43,907 nucleotides of DNA from a bacterium (lineage in GTDB: Bacteria > Patescibacteriota > Dojkabacteria > B142 > OLB20), in NCBI GenBank assembly GCA_029567095.1, contig JAKQLP010000077.1, forward strand, positions 1-43,907. Reading direction: 5' to 3'. The stretch's first letter is position 1, and each line of letters begins with the position of its first letter. Under the pieces are notes generated by a model. It was not told the DNA's origin. It made no database searches and saw only the letters and a list, made by a program, of their open reading frames with translations. A program made the position numbers and the translations under genes. This document shows positions 4,252 through 29,247 of the stretch, piece by piece.

Positions 4252-4488
4252 TTATCTATAGTAAATTTGCAAAAAAGTTTTGTTTTTGCCTTCTAGTCTG
4301 CGTTTTGCAGTTCTTCTTCTGCGTTTCATCTTGCTCCAGACCTTATTAGCTTCATGTTTAATAGCCGTTGGTTTTACACGGTATCTGATCTTTTGTAAGA
4401 CCTTAGGAACATCTTCCCTATTGGCTTCACGCCATAACATTTTTAAAGCCTGGTCTATAGGCATATCATTGTGAACTATTACTGCCAT
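4252..4488 (-). CDS. rpsU: 30S ribosomal protein bS21
   Basis: 78 aa basic protein; IDQALK..REA..YRVKP..Arg-rich tail pattern of S21. Confidence 0.85.
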   Translation of the reverse strand: MAVIVHNDMPIDQALKMLWREANREDVPKVLQKIRYRVKPTAIKHEANKVWSKMKRRRRTAKRRLEGKNKTFLQIYYR

Positions 4489-4495
4489 TTGAAAA

Positions 4496-4505
4496 CACCT
4501 CCTTA
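4496..4505 (-). promoter_or_regulatory. Perfect Shine-Dalgarno TAAGGAGGTG of rpsU
   Basis: Reverse complement of cacctcctta, 7 nt upstream of the ATG. Confidence 0.9.
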
Positions 4506-4532
4506 AAGTGTTGTGTGAATTTTGAACTAGAA

Positions 4533-4561
4533 ATTATATCAGAAGATATTATTAAATCCAA
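4533..4561 (-). promoter_or_regulatory. Sigma70-type promoter for rpsU
   Basis: TTGGAT-17 nt-TATAAT with extended TG. Confidence 0.7.
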
Positions 4562-7456: not shown

Positions 7457-8473
7457 TTATTTTACCTTTTTAACAGACTTCTTTGAAGCTGGTTTTTTTG
7501 TTGATTTAGCTACTTTAGTTTCTTTAGCTTCAACAGCATCACTTTTTTGGCCCTTAGCAGCCTCCTCCTTCACTAACTCTAAAATTCCTTTTTGAGCTAG
7601 GTTCTTTTTACTAGGTCTTGGTTTTGCTTTGACAACAGGCTCACTCTTTTGGGTATCTGAAAGTGCGACTTTTTCTTCAACAGCATCAACCTCAGCTTCT
7701 TTTTTAATTATCTGAATCTCCTGATTGGAATAATCCTTGAATACATGCTTGACACCTCTTCCACCATTCCCAATTTTAATAGCATTTGAAAGCACACCTA
7801 AAATCAAATCTAGAGATTTAAGAGCATCATCATTGGAGGGGATTACATAATCTACTAAATCCGGATCTGAGTTTGTATCTACCATTGAAATGATGGGAAC
7901 ATTTACCGCCTTTGCTTCCAGAACAGCCCCTTTCTCATAATGACAATCAACAACAATTACCGCAGAAGGAAATCTGTCCATCGTCTTAACACCTTTATAT
8001 ATTCTGTTCATTCTCTCCCACTCTTTCTTCAGCTGATTAATTTCAAATTTAGTTCTATTTACAACACCTTTCTCAAACTCTTGTTCTATTTCATTAAATC
8101 TAGCTAAGGACTTCTTTACCATTTTGAAATTTGTAAGAAGACCACCCAGCCATCTGTACGTAACAAAATATGAGCCCGATTCAACAGCATACTTCTCTAC
8201 GATTTCCCTGGCTTGCCTTTTGGTTGCTATAAATAATATTGGGCCTCTTTTTGCAGCTTCAGTCAAAAACTTAGCAGCTTCTTCCAGCATGGGAATTGTT
8301 TTCTGGACGTCAATAATATGGATCTTGTTCTTAACGCCATAGATATATGGCTTCATTTTGGGATTCCATCTGACGGTTTCGTGTCCAAACTGAACTCCGG
8401 CTTTTAATAAATCTTTAATCTCTGGGATAGTGACCTCTTGAGGCACTAAATTATTTGAAGTTTTTTCTTCCAT
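7457..8473 (-). CDS. rpsB: 30S ribosomal protein uS2 with long C-terminal extension
   Basis: LLKAGVQFGH, WNPKM, RWLGGLLTNF, VDTNSDP, PSNDD. Confidence 0.98.
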   Translation of the reverse strand: MEEKTSNNLVPQEVTIPEIKDLLKAGVQFGHETVRWNPKMKPYIYGVKNKIHIIDVQKTIPMLEEAAKFLTEAAKRGPILFIATKRQAREIVEKYAVESGSYFVTYRWLGGLLTNFKMVKKSLARFNEIEQEFEKGVVNRTKFEINQLKKEWERMNRIYKGVKTMDRFPSAVIVVDCHYEKGAVLEAKAVNVPIISMVDTNSDPDLVDYVIPSNDDALKSLDLILGVLSNAIKIGNGGRGVKHVFKDYSNQEIQIIKKEAEVDAVEEKVALSDTQKSEPVVKAKPRPSKKNLAQKGILELVKEEAAKGQKSDAVEAKETKVAKSTKKPASKKSVKKVK

Positions 8474-8479
8474 GTTATT

Positions 8480-8547
8480 CTCCTTTATACCTCCACCCTT
8501 TCAGCTCTTTATGAGCAAGGATAAATTAAAATGGGTGTGTGAATTTT
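8480..8547 (-). promoter_or_regulatory. rpsB (S2) leader RNA
   Basis: Reads UUCACACACCC...GGGUGGAGG then SD AAGGAG, resembling the conserved S2-leader ends; extended -10 TGATATAAT at 8552-8560. Confidence 0.7.
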
Positions 8548-14862: not shown

Positions 14863-15918
14863 TTAAATAATTTCATCCCTAGAAACCTGTATCCTCTCTA
14901 AAAGGTTTATTTCTTCTAATAGTATCTCCGTTCCTCTAACCACCGCCTTAATTGGATCATCAGTGATGATTACAGGGGTTTTCAATCTATCCTCGAAGAA
15001 TTTATCTATTCCATAAATTAGAGCCCCTCCTCCAGCTAATACTATTCCTCTTTCTAATAGATCTGCCAAAATTTCAGGAGGAGTCTTTTCTAAAGCAGCC
15101 TTAATGGCGTCAGCGATCTTTTCTAATACTTTAGCCATTGCCTCCCGGACCTCTAAGCTTGATAGTTTAATTATCCTAGGAAGCCCGGTCAGCATATCCC
15201 TGCCTTTAACATCAAGTTCTTTTTCTGTCTTTAAAGGAATGGCTGAACCGATAGCAATCTTAACGTCCTCAGCCATCTTTGTTCCTATCAATAAATTATA
15301 TTTATACTTGATGTAATTCAAGATCTCTTCATCCAGCTCGTTCCCGGCTATTCTAATAGTATTATCAACCACAATTCCCCCTAAGGAAATTACGGCAATA
15401 TCTGTGGTTCCACCTCCGATATCTACGATCATGCTTCCGGCAGCATCATCAATCGGCAACCTCGAGCCTATCGCAGCAGCCATAGGCTCTTCAATAATGT
15501 AAACCTTCCTGGCACCTGCGGATACAGCCGCATCAATAACTGCTCTAGCTTCCACTTCGGTAATTGCAGAAGGGATGCCAATAACAACCCTAGGTTTAGT
15601 TAACTTAAACATTTTTGGATACATTTCATATACTTTATATATGAAGTACCTAATCATTGCCTCAGTCGAATCAAAATCTGATATTACTCCATCAGCAAGA
15701 GGCTTGACCGCAACAATGCTAGCAGGTGTTCTGCCTATCATTCTCTTAGCATCTACACCCACGGCTAATACTTTCTTAGTATTTTGATTCACTGCCACCA
15801 CTGAAGGCTCGTTAATTACAACACCATGACCTTTAACAGCGACCAGGGTCGTAGAGGTACCTAAATCTATTCCAATATCATGAGTAAAAACAGACAATAA
15901 TCTGTCAAAAATCGGCAT
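14863..15918 (-). CDS. mreB: Actin-like MreB
   Basis: IGIDLGT, NEPSVVA, EEPMAAAIG, VDIGGGTT, LAGGGAL. Confidence 0.97.
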   Translation of the reverse strand: MPIFDRLLSVFTHDIGIDLGTSTTLVAVKGHGVVINEPSVVAVNQNTKKVLAVGVDAKRMIGRTPASIVAVKPLADGVISDFDSTEAMIRYFIYKVYEMYPKMFKLTKPRVVIGIPSAITEVEARAVIDAAVSAGARKVYIIEEPMAAAIGSRLPIDDAAGSMIVDIGGGTTDIAVISLGGIVVDNTIRIAGNELDEEILNYIKYKYNLLIGTKMAEDVKIAIGSAIPLKTEKELDVKGRDMLTGLPRIIKLSSLEVREAMAKVLEKIADAIKAALEKTPPEILADLLERGIVLAGGGALIYGIDKFFEDRLKTPVIITDDPIKAVVRGTEILLEEINLLERIQVSRDEII

Positions 15919-16236: not shown

Positions 16237-16312
16237 GCTGGAATAGCTCAGTTGGTAGAGCACACCCATGGTAAGGGTGGGGTCAAGAGTTCAAATCTCT
16301 TTTCCAGCTCCA
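16237..16312 (+). tRNA. tRNA-Thr(GGT), CCA encoded
   Basis: Cloverleaf GCTGGAA/TTCCAGC; anticodon arm CACCC-ATGGTAA-GGGTG; T-loop TTCAAAT. Confidence 0.96.
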
Positions 16313-16320
16313 TTAATAAT

Positions 16321-16403
16321 GCAAGGGTGGCAGAGCGGTCAATTGCTCCAGACTGTAAATCTGGCGCCGAGAGGCTACGGGGGTTCGAATCCCTCCCCTT
16401 GCA
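16321..16403 (+). tRNA. tRNA-Tyr(GTA), CCA not encoded
   Basis: GCAAGGG/CCCTTGC; CCAGA-CTGTAAA-TCTGG; long variable arm. Confidence 0.96.
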
Positions 16404-16406
16404 AAT

Positions 16407-16479
16407 GCCGAGATAGCTCAGTTGGTAGAGCAACGGTTTTGTAAACCGTCGGTCAAGAGTTCGAGTCTCTTTCTCGGCT
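16407..16479 (+). tRNA. tRNA-Thr(TGT), CCA not encoded
   Basis: GCCGAGA/TCTCGGC; ACGGT-TTTGTAA-ACCGT. Confidence 0.96.
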
Positions 16480-16505
16480 TAGAATAGTTAGTTAATATTA
16501 TAAAC

Positions 16506-16673
16506 ATGGCGAAAAAAGGTAATAGAATCCTGATCAGGCTAAGAAATAAAGAGACTGGAGCTTTTTATACTACTAGCAAGAACAGGATTAATTCAAAAGA
16601 AAAGCTGAAATTGAAGAAATTCGATCCTAAGCTTAAGAAGCATATTGTTTTTGACGAAGATAAGGTAAAATAA
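16506..16673 (+). CDS. rpmG: 50S ribosomal protein bL33, Cys-free form (not in ORF track)
   Basis: Hand translation MAKKGNRILIRLRNKETGAFYTTSKNRINSKEKLKLKKFDPKLKKHIVFDEDKVK (55 aa). Confidence 0.96.
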   Translation: MAKKGNRILIRLRNKETGAFYTTSKNRINSKEKLKLKKFDPKLKKHIVFDEDKVK

Positions 16674-16705
16674 GCCCAATCTAATCCAGGCTTTATTATC
16701 CATAT

Positions 16706-16777
16706 AGAGCCATGGTGTCAATGGTAGCACAGCGGTCTCCAAAACCGTTAGTAGAGGTTCAAATCCTCTTGGCTCTG
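16706..16777 (+). tRNA. tRNA-Trp(CCA), 3' CCA not encoded
   Basis: AGAGCCA/TGGCTCT; anticodon loop CTCCAAA; typical position before secE. Confidence 0.95.
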
Positions 16778-16824
16778 TATTGATTTGGCTTTAATCTTTA
16801 TTTAATTATTGATATAATCAGTCT

Positions 16825-19956: not shown

Positions 19957-20637
19957 ATGGGAGAAATATTCATTCAAAGTGGACTTGATAAAAATGTGGT
20001 AGTGATAATACTATTATTGCCTGTCGTTGCTACAATGATAGGAATTTCCAGACATATTTTCGGGCTTCGTTCCCTTGGCATATATCTTTCACTTGTGATT
20101 ACATTCATATTCTTTAAGTTGGGAGTACCTCAACATGAATCGGCCTACCTATCAGAACCAATTGAAGGTTTGAAATATGGAATTCCTCTAGTCCTACTTG
20201 TGTTCAGCTCCACCCTTCTTTGTTATCTGGCTGTAAAAAAATGGGCTCTACACTATTATCCCAAGCTTTCCATAGTCATAACTGGAGTAACAATGATTTT
20301 AATTCTAGCCATTATTCTCTTAGCATACTTTGATTTTAAGAACGTACTAAGAATTGAAACCTTTACTTTGATACTAATTGTTTCAATAACTGAAAAATAT
20401 TTTAGTATCTTATCAAGAAAGAACTTCAAGACCACCCTATTTATCTCAATCGAAAGCATAATTTTAGCAGCTATTTGTTATCTGATAATCAGCGCTCCTT
20501 TTTTTATAGATACTCTCCTGCTATATCCATATATAATACTCGCTTTACTCCCAGTGAATTACCTGGTTGGTAAATTTAGTGGTCTAAGATTTAGTGAGTA
20601 CCTTAGATTCTGGGATATACTTACGGAAAGAGATTAA
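19957..20637 (+). CDS. 7TM membrane protein of the type associated with RimK-like ATP-grasp ligases
   Basis: LLLPVVAT..RHIFGLRSLGIY; C-terminal GKFSGLRFSEYLRF typical of the 7TM_transglut family; no transglutaminase domain. Confidence 0.75.
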   Translation: MGEIFIQSGLDKNVVVIILLLPVVATMIGISRHIFGLRSLGIYLSLVITFIFFKLGVPQHESAYLSEPIEGLKYGIPLVLLVFSSTLLCYLAVKKWALHYYPKLSIVITGVTMILILAIILLAYFDFKNVLRIETFTLILIVSITEKYFSILSRKNFKTTLFISIESIILAAICYLIISAPFFIDTLLLYPYIILALLPVNYLVGKFSGLRFSEYLRFWDILTERD

Positions 20638-20652
20638 TAAAACGTTCTAACA

Positions 20653-22074
20653 ATGCTCGAAAATCTTTTCAAAGTACTGAAAAATAAAAGAAAAGTTCTG
20701 GGGATGAACGAACGTAATCTCGAATATATTAGGAAGTATAATAAAAGAAAAGCCATTGAAATTGCTGACAATAAGATATTAACCAAGGAAGTCCTTACCA
20801 AAGCGCAAATTCCTACTCCAAAATTAATCAATGTGATTAAATCCTATCAAGAACTTGAAAAGTTTGATTTTAACTCTCTACCTAATTCATTTGTATTGAA
20901 ACCTGTATCCGGGTTAGAAGGTGGGGGTATAGATATATTTTACAATCAAGATAAATCTGGCAGGTGGATTAGAGCTGATAAATCCAAAGCCACCGTAAGT
21001 GATCTAAAGAAACAAATCACAGACATTCTTGATGGTAAATACTCTTTAAATCAAACACCAGACTTCGCTCTATTTGAGGAAAGGATTAAAACACATAAGG
21101 CATTCAAATATTTTACATATAAAGGGACTCCGGATATTCGCTTGATTTCATTTAACCAGATCCCAGTAATGGCATTTCTTAGACTTCCAACTAGGGAATC
21201 TAACGGTAAGGCCAATCTGGCATTAGGGGCAATAGCCACAGGTATTGATATTGCCAATGGTGTAACTACTTTTGCTATTCATGGTAAAGCCGGCTACATT
21301 GAATATATTCCAGGTACCAAACTCGAAGTTAGTGGCTTAAAAATTCCTTATTGGGATAGAATGCTGCGCTATGCAATAGAAGCCCAAAAAGCTTCTGGAT
21401 TAAACTATCTAGCTATTGATTTCCTTATTGATCGCGAACAAGGTCCTGTTATAGTTGAACTTAATGCTAGACCCGGTCTATCTATCCAATTAGCGAACAA
21501 AGATGGTCTTAGATGGCGCCTCAAAAAGACCCAAGACTTGAAAGTAACTTCAACTGAGAAAGGTATGAAGCTCGCAAAATACCTGTTCGGAGGCGAAATT
21601 GAGAATGAAATTGAATCTATTTCAGGTAAAGATGTAATTGGAATTTACGAAAATATTACTTTGTACAATGAGACAATGCAAGAGATCCAAACAAAAGCAA
21701 AGATCGATACTGGAGCGGACAGCACGTCTATAGATAAATCGTTCGGTGTAAAGCTCGGTTTTGGCGATATTATTAAAGCTTTTGAGAATGAAAACATTCC
21801 CGAAGATTTAAATAGAGACGAAGGGTTAAAATTGATGGAAAAGCTTCGTAATAAATTCCTTCCAATGTATCCTGAGAGATTAATAGATGTGCAATTCGTT
21901 AAATCAAGTCATGGTTCAAGCCTAAGGCCATACGTTAAGATCAAAGTCAAAATCAAGGATACAATATTCGAAACAAATGCGACAATCTTTGACCGCTCAA
22001 AGTTAGTATATCCTGTTATTGTGGGTAGAAAATCCTTAACGAAATTTCTTATTGACCCGAGTAAGTCAAAATAG
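20653..22074 (+). CDS. Alpha-L-glutamate-ligase-like ATP-grasp enzyme fused to retropepsin-like protease
   Basis: LGMNERN, FVLKP, PDIR, GKANL, ELNARPGL; C-terminal AKIDTGADSTS and YPVIVGR. Confidence 0.85.
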   Translation: MLENLFKVLKNKRKVLGMNERNLEYIRKYNKRKAIEIADNKILTKEVLTKAQIPTPKLINVIKSYQELEKFDFNSLPNSFVLKPVSGLEGGGIDIFYNQDKSGRWIRADKSKATVSDLKKQITDILDGKYSLNQTPDFALFEERIKTHKAFKYFTYKGTPDIRLISFNQIPVMAFLRLPTRESNGKANLALGAIATGIDIANGVTTFAIHGKAGYIEYIPGTKLEVSGLKIPYWDRMLRYAIEAQKASGLNYLAIDFLIDREQGPVIVELNARPGLSIQLANKDGLRWRLKKTQDLKVTSTEKGMKLAKYLFGGEIENEIESISGKDVIGIYENITLYNETMQEIQTKAKIDTGADSTSIDKSFGVKLGFGDIIKAFENENIPEDLNRDEGLKLMEKLRNKFLPMYPERLIDVQFVKSSHGSSLRPYVKIKVKIKDTIFETNATIFDRSKLVYPVIVGRKSLTKFLIDPSKSK

Positions 22075-22075
22075 C

Positions 22076-23074
22076 TTAGCCCCTAAGAATTCTCTGAATA
22101 TGTTCCAGATTATTGAGGGCATATATTATGCCTCTTATCACAGCTAATTCAGGCTCCTCAACTACATGTGCCGAAACTCCAGTTGCTTTAGTAAAGAGAT
22201 CATCGATATTTCTTAACATTGCAGTACCTCCTGTTAGCACCATTCCCCTATCTATTATATCCGAGGACAATTCAGGTGGAGTCCTCTCTAACACCTCTTT
22301 AATTGAAGCAATAATTTCACTTAGGACAGGTTTAAAGCCCTCAACAACATCATTGGTCTTCAATTCAATAGATGTCGGCATGCCTGTAGTTCCATCTCTT
22401 CCTCTTACCTCCATTGTCAATTCCTCCTGAACTGGTACAGCCGAGCCAATTTCGATCTTGATACGCTCGGCCATCTGCTCTCCAATTACTAAGCCTGTCT
22501 TTTTCCTAATGAAATTGATCATTGCCTCATTCAAAGCATCCCCTGCCAATCTTTTGGATTCGTAGGTTACTATACCATTCATAGACATTACGGCAATTTC
22601 AGAAGTTCCGCCTCCCATACTTATTATCATATTCCCTGCTGAACCTGAAATTGGCATATTTGCTCCAATTGCAGCTGCTATAGGTTCAGGAATCAGAAAC
22701 ACTTTCCCAGCTCCTGCCTGGACACATGCTTCGATCACAGCTCTTTCTTCTACTGAGGTAATACCTGCGGGCACACTGATCATGACCTCAGGTTTGAAAA
22801 ACCTCACTTTGCCCAGAACTTTTTGCATCAGGTGAGAAATGATCATTTCAGTAAGTTTATAACTAGCGATCACCCCCTGACGAATAGGTCTCCTAGCCTC
22901 AATATCAACAGGGACTTTCCCCAACATGCCTTTAGCCTGGTTTCCTATAGCCACAACTTTTTTATCTTTAGTGGAAATTGCTACAACTGTAGGTTCGGAT
23001 ATTATTTCTTTCTTACCTACTACAGCGATAATGGAATTTGAAGTTCCAAGGTCTAAACCAATTCTCGTAGCCAT
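22076..23074 (-). CDS. mreB: Second MreB/Mbl paralog
   Basis: IGLDLGT, EPIAAAIG, GGGTSE, LTGGTAML. Confidence 0.92.
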   Translation of the reverse strand: MATRIGLDLGTSNSIIAVVGKKEIISEPTVVAISTKDKKVVAIGNQAKGMLGKVPVDIEARRPIRQGVIASYKLTEMIISHLMQKVLGKVRFFKPEVMISVPAGITSVEERAVIEACVQAGAGKVFLIPEPIAAAIGANMPISGSAGNMIISMGGGTSEIAVMSMNGIVTYESKRLAGDALNEAMINFIRKKTGLVIGEQMAERIKIEIGSAVPVQEELTMEVRGRDGTTGMPTSIELKTNDVVEGFKPVLSEIIASIKEVLERTPPELSSDIIDRGMVLTGGTAMLRNIDDLFTKATGVSAHVVEEPELAVIRGIIYALNNLEHIQRILRG

Positions 23075-24733: not shown

Positions 24734-25330
24734 TTATTTCAACTTGCCAGATACTCCACTAAAATCACCTGAGTAAACATTGTAATCAAACACTTCCCTA
24801 TTTTTAAACCACAAAGCAATCTCTTCCTTAGCTTCTGCTAATTCACCAGAAGCATGAATAATGTTGTAAATTGGTCTTTGTTGAGAATTAGCAAGCTCGG
24901 CACTATCGATGCCATAATCTCCCCGGATGCTTCCCACCACTGCATTAGCCGGTATGGTATCTCCTACCAACTTTCTACAAACATGTACTGCATTCGGCCC
25001 TTCCCAAACCATAGCTAATACTGGACCAGCACTCAAATAATCAATTAACCAGCCTTTAACTAATTGCCCGATCTTGATTGGATCCATTGTTCCTAATTCC
25101 TTTACTGGATCCAGATCTTTATCTAAATACTCTTTTAAGGTCCTTTCACCTACTTTTTGCAACCATTTTTTAGTATGGGGATAATGTGAATCCCCCATAT
25201 CTCTAGTTGATTTTAAAAATTCCATTGCCACCAACTTCAAACCAACTCTTTCAAACCTTTTGATAATCTCGCCCATCAACCCTCTGGCCACTCCATCATG
25301 TTTAATTACGATCAATGTCCTCTCTGTCAT
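24734..25330 (-). CDS. ndk: Nucleoside-diphosphate kinase (paralog 2)
   Basis: ERTLIVIKHDG, GPVLAMVWEG, GSIRGDY, NIIHAS. Confidence 0.93.
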   Translation of the reverse strand: MTERTLIVIKHDGVARGLMGEIIKRFERVGLKLVAMEFLKSTRDMGDSHYPHTKKWLQKVGERTLKEYLDKDLDPVKELGTMDPIKIGQLVKGWLIDYLSAGPVLAMVWEGPNAVHVCRKLVGDTIPANAVVGSIRGDYGIDSAELANSQQRPIYNIIHASGELAEAKEEIALWFKNREVFDYNVYSGDFSGVSGKLK

Positions 25331-25348
25331 GATTAATAAAACTAATAA

Positions 25349-25960
25349 TTAATATGCTTCATAAATACCTGTATAATCGAGCCTATGGTAATCACTGAGA
25401 TCTTTAAAATCTTTGCCAAACCAATGCTCTATCTCCCTTTTAGCCTCTGAAGCTGCGTCTGATCTATGAACAAGTGTCTTGAAAACAATTCTTCCTGATC
25501 TAACAGCAAGCCTAGGAGTATCAAACCCGTAATCGCCTCGAACTGTTCCCACATCAGCTAACACTGGATCTGTCTTACCCATTAACTTAGCTACCACATC
25601 TACAGCATGATTTCCCTCCCAAACACTTATAACGACAGGTCCTTCTGTCAAATATTGAACCAGAGAGTCATAAATCATTTGACCAATTTTCAATTTGTCA
25701 GTTGTACCCAAATCCTTTAATAATGCCTTTTCATCATTATTATAGTTTTGATAAGTTTTATCCCCCATCTTCTCAAGCCATTCTTTTGTACCGGGATAGT
25801 TTTTTCTGGCTTGTTCTTTACTAGGCCATATCATCCTACAGGCGACCATTTTCAAGCCTATTCGTTCCAACCTATGGAATATTTCTCCAATTAAGCCCCT
25901 TCTCACACCATCAGGCTTTATCATTAGAAATGTTTGTTCAATACTATCAAAGTCATGCAT
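25349..25960 (-). CDS. ndk: Nucleoside-diphosphate kinase (paralog 1)
   Basis: QTFLMIKPDG, GPVV..WEG, GTVRGDY, LVHRSD. Confidence 0.93.
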   Translation of the reverse strand: MHDFDSIEQTFLMIKPDGVRRGLIGEIFHRLERIGLKMVACRMIWPSKEQARKNYPGTKEWLEKMGDKTYQNYNNDEKALLKDLGTTDKLKIGQMIYDSLVQYLTEGPVVISVWEGNHAVDVVAKLMGKTDPVLADVGTVRGDYGFDTPRLAVRSGRIVFKTLVHRSDAASEAKREIEHWFGKDFKDLSDYHRLDYTGIYEAY

Positions 25961-26643: not shown

Positions 26644-27531
26644 TCATAAATAATTCAGAGATTGATCAGATAACAGTAATTTCTTTAAAAAGATCAAATA
26701 TGAACAGTATTGCTCACATCCATCACTTGAAACCAATTCCATTGTGATCCCATCGCTTATTAACACTTGAGTACCATCAATATCAGTTCTTTCTACAGCT
26801 ATCTTATTCATATTAAAGATATCCAAAACCTCCTTATGCGGATGCCCATAAGTGTTATTCCTACCTGCAGAAATTATAGCCACTTCGGGCTTTATTGTAT
26901 CCACGAAATATTTTGAAGTACTATTCCTACTTCCGTGATGACTTACTTTTAATACATCGATATCCCCTATTGCTGAGGCTATTAAATCCTCCTCGGGGCT
27001 GGGCAGATCACCCCCAAAAAAGAAACTTAAACTTTGATAATCAACCCTAAAAGCTAGACTAGCCTCGTTTGATTCTCTACTATCAACAACCGGATTCTCA
27101 AAAAAACTGATCATAACACAACAGCCGACTTTGATATCTCCTTGAACCCTATTATATGGCTGAAGGTAATTTTCCCAATCATCCTTATAATCTGGATCCC
27201 CTTCATTATATATGACTCCATTAACTCTGTATGACTGTAAAATTAAAGGCAGAGCTCCGATGTGATCATTATCAAAATGGGAGATGATCAGAAGATCTAT
27301 AGTATTTTCCCCAAAAGGGAAATATCGGGACAATTCTTCATAGGCGGCCCTACCAGGACCGGTGTCAATCAAAACATATCTACCCTCAGGAGTCCGTAAC
27401 AAGGTCGCTTCACCCTGCCCTACATCAAGAAAATAAGCATAAAAAGATCTATCCCTGTACCCAAATATTAGATCAAAGATCAATAATATTATTAATACAA
27501 CAAATAAATACCTATATTTTGCTGCTTTCAT
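26644..27531 (-). CDS. ComEC-type metallo-beta-lactamase nuclease domain protein
   Basis: LDVGQG, LIDTG, SHFDNDHIG, KVSHHGS, NTYGHP, RTD..G. Confidence 0.9.
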   Translation of the reverse strand: MKAAKYRYLFVVLIILLIFDLIFGYRDRSFYAYFLDVGQGEATLLRTPEGRYVLIDTGPGRAAYEELSRYFPFGENTIDLLIISHFDNDHIGALPLILQSYRVNGVIYNEGDPDYKDDWENYLQPYNRVQGDIKVGCCVMISFFENPVVDSRESNEASLAFRVDYQSLSFFFGGDLPSPEEDLIASAIGDIDVLKVSHHGSRNSTSKYFVDTIKPEVAIISAGRNNTYGHPHKEVLDIFNMNKIAVERTDIDGTQVLISDGITMELVSSDGCEQYCSYLIFLKKLLLSDQSLNYL

Positions 27532-27550: not shown

Positions 27551-28690
27551 TCATATTATATTAGCAATACCAACTATAAAGAAAATCATATCCAATTGCA
27601 GGTCAGTAATTAAATTGAACAATCCCGCACTCGGGATCAAAAATAACGAGGAGATAATTGCAAGTAATCCAGAAGTAATTACTAAAGGTATCAAGGGTGC
27701 AATAAGAATATTGGCTATTAGCGAACCTAATGTAGGAGCGTTACCAAATCTAATTATGATTGGTAACACAAAAACATTGCATAACAAATTAGCTATTAAT
27801 CCTTCAATGAGCCAATTAGGTTTAAATATTTTTTTGATATAGCCTGCGCAAATCATACCTGCTGATGCTAAAAACGATAGCTGTAAACTAATTTCATTTG
27901 CATTATGTGGATTTAATATGAGAAGGACCATTAAAGCCAATCCCCATATCTGAAACTTCTGTACTCTTCTTTGGATCAATTTGGTGAAAATACTAATAAA
28001 GGTCATAATAAACGCCCTCTGACAAGGTATATTATCAATACCAACAATTAAACAATAAAAGACCATAATAAACATACTAATAAGATATGTCTTCTTTCTG
28101 CCAAATAGCACTGAAAGTCGCATAATAGATCCATGAAGGAATTCAATATTAAAACCCGAAACCACTAAAATATGCATTGTTAAAGTGTTTTTAAATCGTT
28201 CTATGACCTTAGGGCTATAATCATAATCAGCCCCAATTAATAATCCTGAAAACAGAGCCGCATTTTGCCCATGCCAGTTTTTATGTATTGTTTTTAATAG
28301 ATCAGACCTGAAGCGACTTATCTCATATAGAATACCTTCACCTTTCTTATGTTCAATTATTAATGGATCAGTGACAAAGCCCACTCTAGTTATTGAGTTT
28401 AATTTTACTCGCCCTTCAATAATTAGTTTGTCATCTACATGAATCTCTTTATCAAGCTTGGTAATAACCTTAATCTTTTGATTAAAGCCAGTGTTATTAA
28501 GTTGTACATAGAACTCCTGCCCTACCCCCTTATATTGAGGGTAAGAAATTACGCGAACCTCTCTTGGAGATCTATCTTCGTTAATTAAGAAATTCATAGG
28601 ATAATCCTGCTTTGCTATTTGAAGGCTCCCAAACAGAATTACTGATAGGATGAATAGAGAATGCTCTTTGATAATCCCGCTGAGATGCAT
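27551..28690 (-). CDS. comEC: ComEC/Rec2 competence membrane channel domain
   Basis: HILVVSGFN, RAFIM, SLQLSFLA, ANILIAP. Confidence 0.9.
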   Translation of the reverse strand: MHLSGIIKEHSLFILSVILFGSLQIAKQDYPMNFLINEDRSPREVRVISYPQYKGVGQEFYVQLNNTGFNQKIKVITKLDKEIHVDDKLIIEGRVKLNSITRVGFVTDPLIIEHKKGEGILYEISRFRSDLLKTIHKNWHGQNAALFSGLLIGADYDYSPKVIERFKNTLTMHILVVSGFNIEFLHGSIMRLSVLFGRKKTYLISMFIMVFYCLIVGIDNIPCQRAFIMTFISIFTKLIQRRVQKFQIWGLALMVLLILNPHNANEISLQLSFLASAGMICAGYIKKIFKPNWLIEGLIANLLCNVFVLPIIIRFGNAPTLGSLIANILIAPLIPLVITSGLLAIISSLFLIPSAGLFNLITDLQLDMIFFIVGIANII

Positions 28691-29247
28691 TAGATAGTGC
28701 TACTATCTTTAAGAATTTGAATTATATCGCTTCTTATTTCAGTTCGTTGTTTTAAATCTTCCCAATCTAGAAAAGGCCTATGAGCTATGATCTTATCTGC
28801 TGTAGCCTCACCAATGCCTTTTATGGAAATAAGGGCATCTCTTGTTGCATAATTCAAGTTAATTAAGCCTAATTTAGCGTTCTCGTTATTAGAATCCATG
28901 AATGGGATATATACTTTCATTTCAGAGGAAACCTTTTTGGAAAGTGTAATGTTCTTTTCCGCAAAAACATGATCGGCATTATCAGTGAAGCCCCCGGCTA
29001 AATTAACAAGATCAATAACCAGAATATTATCAGTAACTTCATACACACCTGGATATTTAACACCTCCCCAAATTTCAACAAAAATTATAGGAGTAATTGA
29101 ATTCAAATCCTTAACTAAAGGCGCAATAATCGTCTCCGTATGCTCCTCTTTCTGAGCTACTGAGTAATATACCCGAATAGATATTAATGCAATTAGTAAT
29201 ACAACTGTAATAATGATGGATTTGTGCTGTTCAATAAAGGAAGCCAT
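28690..29247 (-). CDS. comEA: ComEA DNA receptor (SLBB + HhH)
   Basis: N-terminal TM, GGVKYPGVY, AGG, INLNYAT..IKGIGEATADKII. Confidence 0.9.
   Translation of the reverse strand: MASFIEQHKSIIITVVLLIALISIRVYYSVAQKEEHTETIIAPLVKDLNSITPIIFVEIWGGVKYPGVYEVTDNILVIDLVNLAGGFTDNADHVFAEKNITLSKKVSSEMKVYIPFMDSNNENAKLGLINLNYATRDALISIKGIGEATADKIIAHRPFLDWEDLKQRTEIRSDIIQILKDSSTI

Follow-up and report, generated by a model that had tools for sequence, protein, structure and literature searches.

An extended Shine-Dalgarno sequence sets rpsU apart in SD-poor Dojkabacteria and suggests a possible bS21 feedback

The stretch of DNA analysed here, 43,907 nt of contig JAKQLP010000077.1 (assembly GCA_029567095.1) and called the window throughout, carries on its minus strand the gene rpsU for ribosomal protein bS21, preceded by a long and perfect Shine-Dalgarno (SD) sequence. 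The window has a G+C content of 34-39% and contains rpsB-tsf-frr-rseP-rpsU-dnaX-ybaB-recR-cca, mreBCD-mrdA, a tRNA cluster, and rpmG-secE-nusG-rplKAJL. The rpsU start codon lies at 4488..4486, the stop codon ends at 4252, and dnaX starts 27 nt past it. The SD, TAAGGAGGTG, comprises 10 nt and stands 7 nt before the ATG, exactly as a preliminary description of this DNA had reported; together with the next two bases (TT, 4495..4494) it forms GGAGGTGTT, which is typical of the clade. Homologues and related loci place the window in Candidatus Dojkabacteria, within the Candidate Phyla Radiation (CPR)/Patescibacteria, in agreement with the earlier view that the lineage is other than Bacteroidota.

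We scored the pairing between positions -22..-3 of each gene and an assumed canonical 16S tail, GAUCACCUCCUUA (13 nt), using ViennaRNA duplexfold. The rpsU leader reaches -16.0 kcal/mol; among the 38 other window genes of at least 80 aa, rpsB comes closest, with -10.7 kcal/mol. The other ribosomal protein genes of the window score -4.5 (rplJ), -4.1 (rplA), -0.9 (rplK), -0.3 (rpsA), +0.8 (rpmG), and +1.3 (rplL), and the values for tsf, frr, nusG, and rho are between -0.2 and -3.1. The energies uphold the earlier claim that the highly expressed genes lack an SD and that rpsB alone shares one with rpsU, the six other ribosomal protein genes being at -4.5 or weaker.

For comparison, relatives were collected by a scan for this type of bS21, with one genome retained per species. 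The scan gives 98 pattern matches, of which 60 are confirmed, and a set of 59 loci. Almost all of these come from metagenome-assembled genomes, and their lineage labels, where given, are mostly Dojkabacteria or WS6. Together with the window there are 60 rpsU genes and 58 evaluable leaders (the window and 57 loci), the leader of L022 being masked and that of L041 cut by a contig end. The gene order near rpsU is kept in many of the loci, with rseP found in 52, dnaX and frr in 47 each, and rpsB, tsf, and recR in 39 each. The background set consists of 847 other genes (at least 80 aa, longest-open reading frame [ORF] starts) from the window and the 59 loci.

The background is SD-poor. Only 8.7% of the 847 starts attain -6 kcal/mol or better (median -1.4), compared to 6.8% of shuffles of the same upstream stretches (n = 4235) and 25.7% of in-frame internal ATGs (n = 3271). 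Because longest-ORF starts may be wrong, a second, strict set with starts fixed by homology to window proteins was scored (n = 163), and it gives 8.0% at -6 or better with a median of -1.5. In a 50-kb control from Escherichia coli the share is 51% at annotated starts (n = 43) and 28% via the identical crude pipeline (n = 46). A measure that takes the best of all candidate starts gives 38% at -6 or better; it was discarded as an estimate because most of its matches are internal codons, and is kept as an upper bound only. With homology-guided starts, the medians for tsf, frr, rseP, dnaX, ybaB, topA, mrdA, dprA, and cca lie between -0.2 and -3.2, and zero to two members per family reach -8; for recR the median is -4.0, and 4 of 39 members reach -8. 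The motif GGAGG is found at -20..-4 in 6 of the 847 genes, with 2.6 expected from shuffles. No alternative motif is enriched upstream of the other genes: the top 5-mers occur in at most 8% of them, and several of these probably derive from orthologous leaders. At the 163 homology-guided starts, A occupies position -3 in 58% of cases, compared to 35% A overall, and G makes up 12% of upstream bases. This preference and the low G resemble the SD-independent start context of Bacteroidia. Dojkabacteria are an SD-poor lineage in which SD use is roughly at chance level, and strong SDs are not common among the sampled genes, as had been proposed for the window.

The rpsU leaders depart from this background in the majority of relatives. 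Of 58 leaders, 37 score -12 kcal/mol or better and 41 score -8 or better, whereas 15 are weaker than -6. The strongest SD belongs to rpsU in 39 of the 54 loci with at least five other genes, and in 32 of them this is true even against every alternative start codon. GGAGG is present in 37/58 rpsU leaders vs 6/847 other genes (Fisher p = 2e-44, the genomes being related). The expectation that rpsU would be the SD outlier across relatives is borne out by these counts. Between the last G of GGAGG and the ATG there are 9 nt in the window and 5-13 nt in 36 SD-bearing relatives, which is within the working range of SD sequences.

A FastTree phylogeny of six concatenated neighboring proteins (50 rows; nine loci with fewer than three of the six were dropped) splits the relatives into two deep clades. 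Clade 1 has 18 members with a strong rpsU SD and three without, the latter confined to one subclade. Clade 2 has 14 strong, three weak, 11 without, and one masked, and its two basal branches lack the SD. In the 18 aligned clade-1 leaders GGAGGT is the sole invariant block (18/18), with diverged flanks on both sides. The bases that follow GGAGG are specific to clades: 10 genomes of the window's group have TGTT, 7 genomes of two neighboring groups have TGA and then A or T, and 15 genomes, from clade 2 and L020, have TAA. Such clade-wise conservation 3' of GGAGG suggests selection on a helix that extends past the core. The rpsU SD is genuine, selected, and extended; it is conserved across two deep clades, and its 3' extension is kept within clades. 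We also considered a clearly raised SD use in genomes that have lost the rpsU SD. The share of other genes at -6 is slightly higher there (11-14% vs 7.5-8%), and with so slight a difference the idea was set aside.

The 78-aa rpsU product is bS21, even though its match to Pfam PF01165 is sub-threshold (19.9 bits vs a cut-off of 27) and NCBIfam gives no match. The assignment follows from homologues, PDB profile matches, and fold. A database search returns 103 relatives (E ≤ 0.001, among 104 candidates), many of which are named bS21 or carry PF01165 and several of which come from Candidatus Dojkabacteria. A profile built from 28 relatives matches 27 bS21 sequences in the PDB at E ≤ 1. Plastid bS21 is the best of these (6.9e-6), the E. 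coli protein scores 1.8e-4, and Flavobacterium johnsoniae bS21 (7jil_z) is the weakest (0.12). The AlphaFold2 model (mean pLDDT 86) has helices at residues 11-24, 27-35, and 40-77, the last being a long C-terminal helix. Foldseek with this model returns bS21 chains in 20 of 21 matches, with weak E-values (≥0.047) that are expected for a small protein. In the model the Dojkabacteria protein appears similar to E. coli bS21, with an N-terminal helical part, a long basic C-terminal helix, and a similar C-terminal charge.

Autoregulation of rpsU by bS21 is known from F. johnsoniae and other Bacteroidia, where ribosomes without bS21 translate rpsU faster (PMC7797042, PMC9976891, PMC13000457). A 13-bp helix between the SD and the anti-SD (ASD) sterically excludes bS21 (Arpin 2026, PMC13000457). 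The bS21 of Bacteroidia is marked by a less basic C-terminal part and by Tyr54 (Jha 2021, PMC7797042), which stacks on A1534. Two criteria are used by McNutt 2023 (PMC9976891), namely that rpsU pairing is the strongest among ribosomal protein genes and that it surpasses -13 kcal/mol in strength; the SD so recognized is present in ~80% of Flavobacteriales and in none of the Bacteroidales. In the window, rpsU pairing is likewise the strongest among ribosomal protein genes and goes beyond -13 kcal/mol, with energies obtained from another program and an assumed tail. The Dojkabacteria resemble Bacteroidia in being SD-poor with rpsU as the lone strong and extended outlier (-13 or better) and in the conserved but patchy occurrence of the element (here 37/58). 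The A preferred at -3 also echoes the A-3 contact seen in F. johnsoniae (Arpin 2026, PMC13000457).

The two systems differ in several respects. The Dojkabacteria belong to CPR/Patescibacteria, the second SD-bearing gene is rpsB here and rpsR there, the SD measures 10-12 nt here and 9-13 bp there, the C-terminal part of bS21 is strongly basic, and an equivalent of Tyr54 is not alignable. Position 51, which lies on the long C-terminal helix, often holds an aromatic residue (W, Y, or F). The preliminary description had looked instead to the extreme C-terminus, and this part of it is not supported. The window protein ends in TFLQIYYR, and its C-terminal extension (residues ~68-78, ...GKNKTFLQIYYR) is restricted to the lineage. 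The aromatic tail, considered as a functional analogue of Tyr54, is found only in the window, L001-L003, and the closest database homologues; that is 4 of 60 genes, all in the window's subclade, vs an SD in 37/58. Its last residues have a pLDDT of ~55, and E. coli bS21 likewise ends in Tyr. We rejected the tail as the key element.

The nearest logical parallel is provided by Chlorobia, an SD-poor group with the rpsU-outlier signature, in which a strong rpsU SD exists though bS21 is without Tyr54; the mechanism there is called 'similar but not identical' (McNutt 2023, PMC9976891). Chlorobia, unlike the Dojkabacteria, are Bacteroidota. In Chlorobia, 11 other contact residues among bS21, bS18, and bS6 are conserved or conservatively substituted (PMC9976891). 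In E. coli, the SD-ASD helix lies between two bS21 helices and both coexist (Arpin 2026, PMC13000457); we find the E. coli rpsU SD to be ordinary (-8.5 vs a regional median of -6.0). In Francisella, bS21 paralogues confer leader-specific translation (PMC9578407, PMC13374519). The likeness to that system would be that the bS21 content of ribosomes decides which leaders get translated, but Francisella works by paralogue exchange and there is no bS21 paralogue in the 44-kb window.

With every testable genomic criterion of the Bacteroidia system reproduced and the protein signature not, we favor a feedback of the same logic. Bacteroidota-like control by bS21 through an extended SD-ASD helix, acting without the Bacteroidia signature in bS21, has in our estimate a probability of about 0.5, and the feedback idea of the preliminary description is plausible to that extent. 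Apart from rpsU, this lineage initiates translation mostly without SD-ASD pairing; its leaders are short and A/U-rich, and A is preferred at -3. By analogy with Bacteroidota, on 30S subunits that bS21 has not yet joined, or from which it has been lost, the 3' tail of 16S rRNA would be accessible. Pairing of this tail with the rpsU leader over 10-12 bp would give these subunits a preference for rpsU. Binding of bS21 would then block the helix, whether by keeping the tail at a distance or through a clash between a helix of this length and the C-terminal helix of bS21, and bS21 synthesis would drop. We infer from this comparison a 16S tail complementary to the leader, tail access controlled by bS21 status, and, following from these, a feedback loop. 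Since the Bacteroidia signature is missing from this bS21, control of this kind would be of independent origin or would use a different contact.

Several observations weigh against this feedback. On the side of the protein, residues 43 to the end of bS21 have a pI of 11.7-12.0 in 60 of 60 genes (11.9 in E. coli), so this part is strongly basic and not of the less basic Bacteroidia type; the profile match to F. johnsoniae bS21 covers residues 5-46 only, with the weak E-value of 0.12 given above. The genes for bS18 and bS6 (rpsR and rpsF) are not among the window genes, and the loci were not searched for them. On the side of the leader, the rpsU SD is weaker than -6 in 15/58 and the tree requires at least eight gains or losses, which makes the element dispensable in many lineages. 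Near-identical L057 and L058 (branch lengths 0.03 and 0.02) have identical bS21 proteins, and L057 has no SD whereas L058 scores -12.8. On the side of the data, the count of 37/58 and its p value are not independent observations, since the genomes are related; sampling amounts to ~2-38 genes per genome, that is, to loci rather than whole genomes; and longest-ORF starts are error-prone, with the E. coli control forfeiting about half its signal. All SD energies rest on the canonical tail as an assumption. A search for a conserved 16S 3' motif (up to two mismatches) finds no match in 926 kb of window and loci, and the window holds no rRNA.

The region upstream of rpsU in L057 (9956-10000) and in L058 (6973-7017) is unrelated DNA, the SD-bearing one having AAAGGAGGTTAAT. 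Judged from these sequences, this suggests that the leader was recently replaced.

As to the tail itself, the supplement of PMC10783764 prints GATTACCTCCTTTCT for two Saccharibacteria and includes no Dojkabacteria. If a Saccharibacteria-like U at 1533 is assumed, the clade-2 SD becomes contiguous with an energy of about -14 to -16 kcal/mol; we treat this as a lead and not as a result. In the available text of Tsurumaki 2022, loss of the anti-SD is reported only for a subgroup of Parcubacteria.

Among the other explanations, the one that fares best is that of a plain strong ribosome-binding site. There would be no feedback; the anti-SD would be free and working, most genes would ignore it, and rpsU (rpsB more weakly) would keep its SD for the sake of efficient initiation on a short transcript of its own. 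The spacing of the rpsU SD is normal, and a promoter-like element indeed lies ahead of the gene. TATAAT stands at -50 relative to the ATG in the window, as part of a probable extended -10 element, and 47 of the 60 rpsU genes have TGnTATAAT in their first 80 nt upstream. A consensus promoter scan returns no minus-strand promoter before rpsU; the scanner requires a -35 box and is for this reason blind to TGaTATAAT. We read these motifs as pointing to a separate transcript start for rpsU, predicted near 4526 in the window, with a leader of probably ~38 nt. In clade 2 TGnTATAAT is almost fixed at -36 to -44, which suggests a dedicated rpsU promoter and a leader of ~25-30 nt. The loss of the SD without a change in bS21 (L057 vs L058), the several losses at least that the tree contains, and a C-terminal charge of bS21 that resembles SD-using bacteria fit a plain site as well. 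It does not account for the other ribosomal protein genes that must yield as much and yet have no SD, namely rplK, rplA, rplJ, rplL, rpmG, and rpsA, nor for tsf, frr, nusG, and rho, which have none either. Furthermore, the rpsU SD is far longer than needed and its extension is kept by clade. In E. coli, initiation tends to be slower on very long SDs, and the length is thus not explained by yield. On balance we regard a plain site as rather unlikely.

We give still less credit to a sensor of late 30S assembly that is common to rpsU and rpsB, in which the maturity of the subunit, and not bS21 alone, would be regulated. Both bS21 and uS2 join the subunit late, at a place close to the 16S 3' tail and to where the mRNA exits, and immature subunits without one or the other would translate the proteins they are missing through SD pairing. 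This explanation draws on rpsB, the sole other gene with a recurrent SD-like sequence. Its 39 orthologues have a median of -7.4 kcal/mol, with 19/39 at -8 or better, and two conserved purine boxes recur in their leaders, GAGGT or AGGTGA followed by AAAGGAG or AAAGGAA. The rpsB SD is strongest in two basal clade-2 genomes that have none on rpsU, L056 (AAAGGAGGTA, -13.0) and L032 (-11.6). Other orders of Bacteroidia carry an SD on rpsU and/or rpsR, which indicates that the regulated gene can shift. On the other hand, the rpsB elements are weaker, one of the boxes is too far upstream for normal SD spacing, and the boxes may belong to a classical uS2 autoregulatory leader. The rpsB leader could be such a leader or could be part of the same SD-based control as rpsU.

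Autogenous repression by mimicry, in which free bS21 would bind a leader hairpin that imitates the SD-ASD helix and would thereby block initiation, is very improbable. The preliminary description had noted that the SD can fold into a hairpin, and pairing of AACACUUU with GAGGUGUU is indeed the predicted minimum-energy fold of the window leader (-5.6 kcal/mol). It is no better than shuffled sequence, however (z -0.13; 85 of 200 shuffles fold as well or better), and it is not conserved: the alignment of 18 clade-1 leaders yields zero consensus base pairs. Across 36 leaders the SD core has an unpaired probability of 0.46, compared to 0.50 with shuffled flanks (p = 0.19), so there is no excess pairing, and in the window's GTGTT group the value is 0.54 native vs 0.49 shuffled. 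A scan of the window with Rfam gives no family at the gathering score except tRNAs. On these grounds an SD-sequestering hairpin was rejected as a general feature. The mimicry idea is favored by a clade-2 subgroup (L038, L039, L042, L048, L049, and L051), in which a CCUC resembling the anti-SD stands between the SD and the ATG, right next to the latter (GGAGGUAAACCUC), so that GGAGG can pair with the downstream CCUC. In L038 and L039 the two stretches are GGAGA and UCUC, which looks like a compensatory change (pairing judged by eye), and for L048 and L051 the prediction is an SD core that is largely paired, with unpaired probabilities of 0.08 and 0.02, respectively.

A relic or chance feature, such as an SD brought along with a horizontally acquired rpsU, could draw on the repeated loss of the element on the tree, but is the least credible explanation and is already contradicted by conservation, given the order rpsB-tsf-frr-rseP-rpsU-dnaX-ybaB-recR kept across the class, GGAGGT invariant in 18/18 clade-1 leaders amid diverged flanks, and GGAGG in 37/58 vs 6/847.

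The bS21 feedback can be carried one step further, tentatively. Dojkabacteria ribosomes might be SD-blind, a state reached independently, with bS21 (basic C-terminal helix, often an aromatic residue at position 51) as gatekeeper of the 16S tail. We consider this possible, at odds well below even. If it is true, the extended rpsU SD would serve to sense subunits that lack bS21, ribosomes specialized under the government of bS21 would have evolved at least two times in bacteria, and the extensions GTGTT, GTGA, and GTAA would follow clade-specific 16S tails. A concrete prediction for the 16S tails of complete Dojkabacteria genomes follows: CCUCC would be kept, position 1532 would be A where the SD reads GGAGGTGTT and U where it reads GGAGGTGA, and U might stand at 1533 where it reads GGAGGTAA.

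Our literature search, which left most subscription journals uncovered, finds no report of an rpsU SD outlier or of SD paucity for Dojkabacteria or other CPR, and the available text of McNutt 2023 (PMC9976891) describes the rpsU signature for Bacteroidota only. In the literature searched, Bacteroidota are the only group for which autoregulation of bS21 by way of a lone extended SD is described. That system is the clearest bacterial case of ribosome composition choosing an mRNA. Its genomic signature in a CPR lineage, here without the Bacteroidia charge signature in bS21, suggests that the logic may be more general than one protein pocket: ordinary genes drop their SDs, and one is kept for the protein beside the anti-SD. 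This would help explain why SD-poor lineages retain the anti-SD. The SD poverty of Dojkabacteria also matters for gene calling in these genomes.

Table 1. Coordinates of rpsU, rpsB, and their leader elements in the window.
Feature	Position	Strand	Basis
rpsU (bS21), 78 aa	4252..4488	-	Translation, homologues, PDB profile matches, AlphaFold2 model
SD TAAGGAGGTG	4496..4505	-	Sequence; -16.0 kcal/mol to GAUCACCUCCUUA
Spacer ttttcaa, 7 nt, SD to ATG	4489..4495	-	Sequence
Probable extended -10 element TGaTATAAT	4533..4541	-	Sequence and recurrence upstream of rpsU
Hairpin, arms 4512..4505 and 4501..4494, loop 4504..4502	4494..4512	-	Predicted fold; not regarded as functional
rpsB (uS2)	7457..8473	-	Sole other window gene with SD-like sequence, -10.7 kcal/mol
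rpsB purine boxes GGAGGT (8494..8489) and AAGGAG (8485..8480)	8474-8495 region	-	Sequence

Other parts of the window show some features of their own. A cluster of tRNA-Thr, Tyr, and Thr is followed by rpmG and tRNA-Trp upstream of secE-nusG-rplKAJL (16237-16778), with no tuf between, and rplL is not followed by rpoB. Instead, rplL is followed on the plus strand (19957-22074) by a gene for a 7TM transglutaminase-associated membrane protein and then by one for an ATP-grasp (RimK-like) ligase, which has a C-terminal retropepsin-like part with RloB- and RloA3-like matches. There are two mreB paralogues (14863-15918 and 22076-23074), one of which heads mreB-mreC-(156-aa ORF)-mrdA while the other stands alone. 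Two nucleoside-diphosphate kinase (NDK)-like genes of ~200 aa each lie in tandem on the minus strand (24734-25330 and 25349-25960); each matches the ~140-aa NDK profile in two stretches and hence has an insertion. Finally, ComEC is split into two minus-strand ORFs (26644-27531 and 27551-28690) downstream of comEA (28690-29247), which divide between them the N-terminal competence domain and the metallo-beta-lactamase-like part at the C-terminal end.

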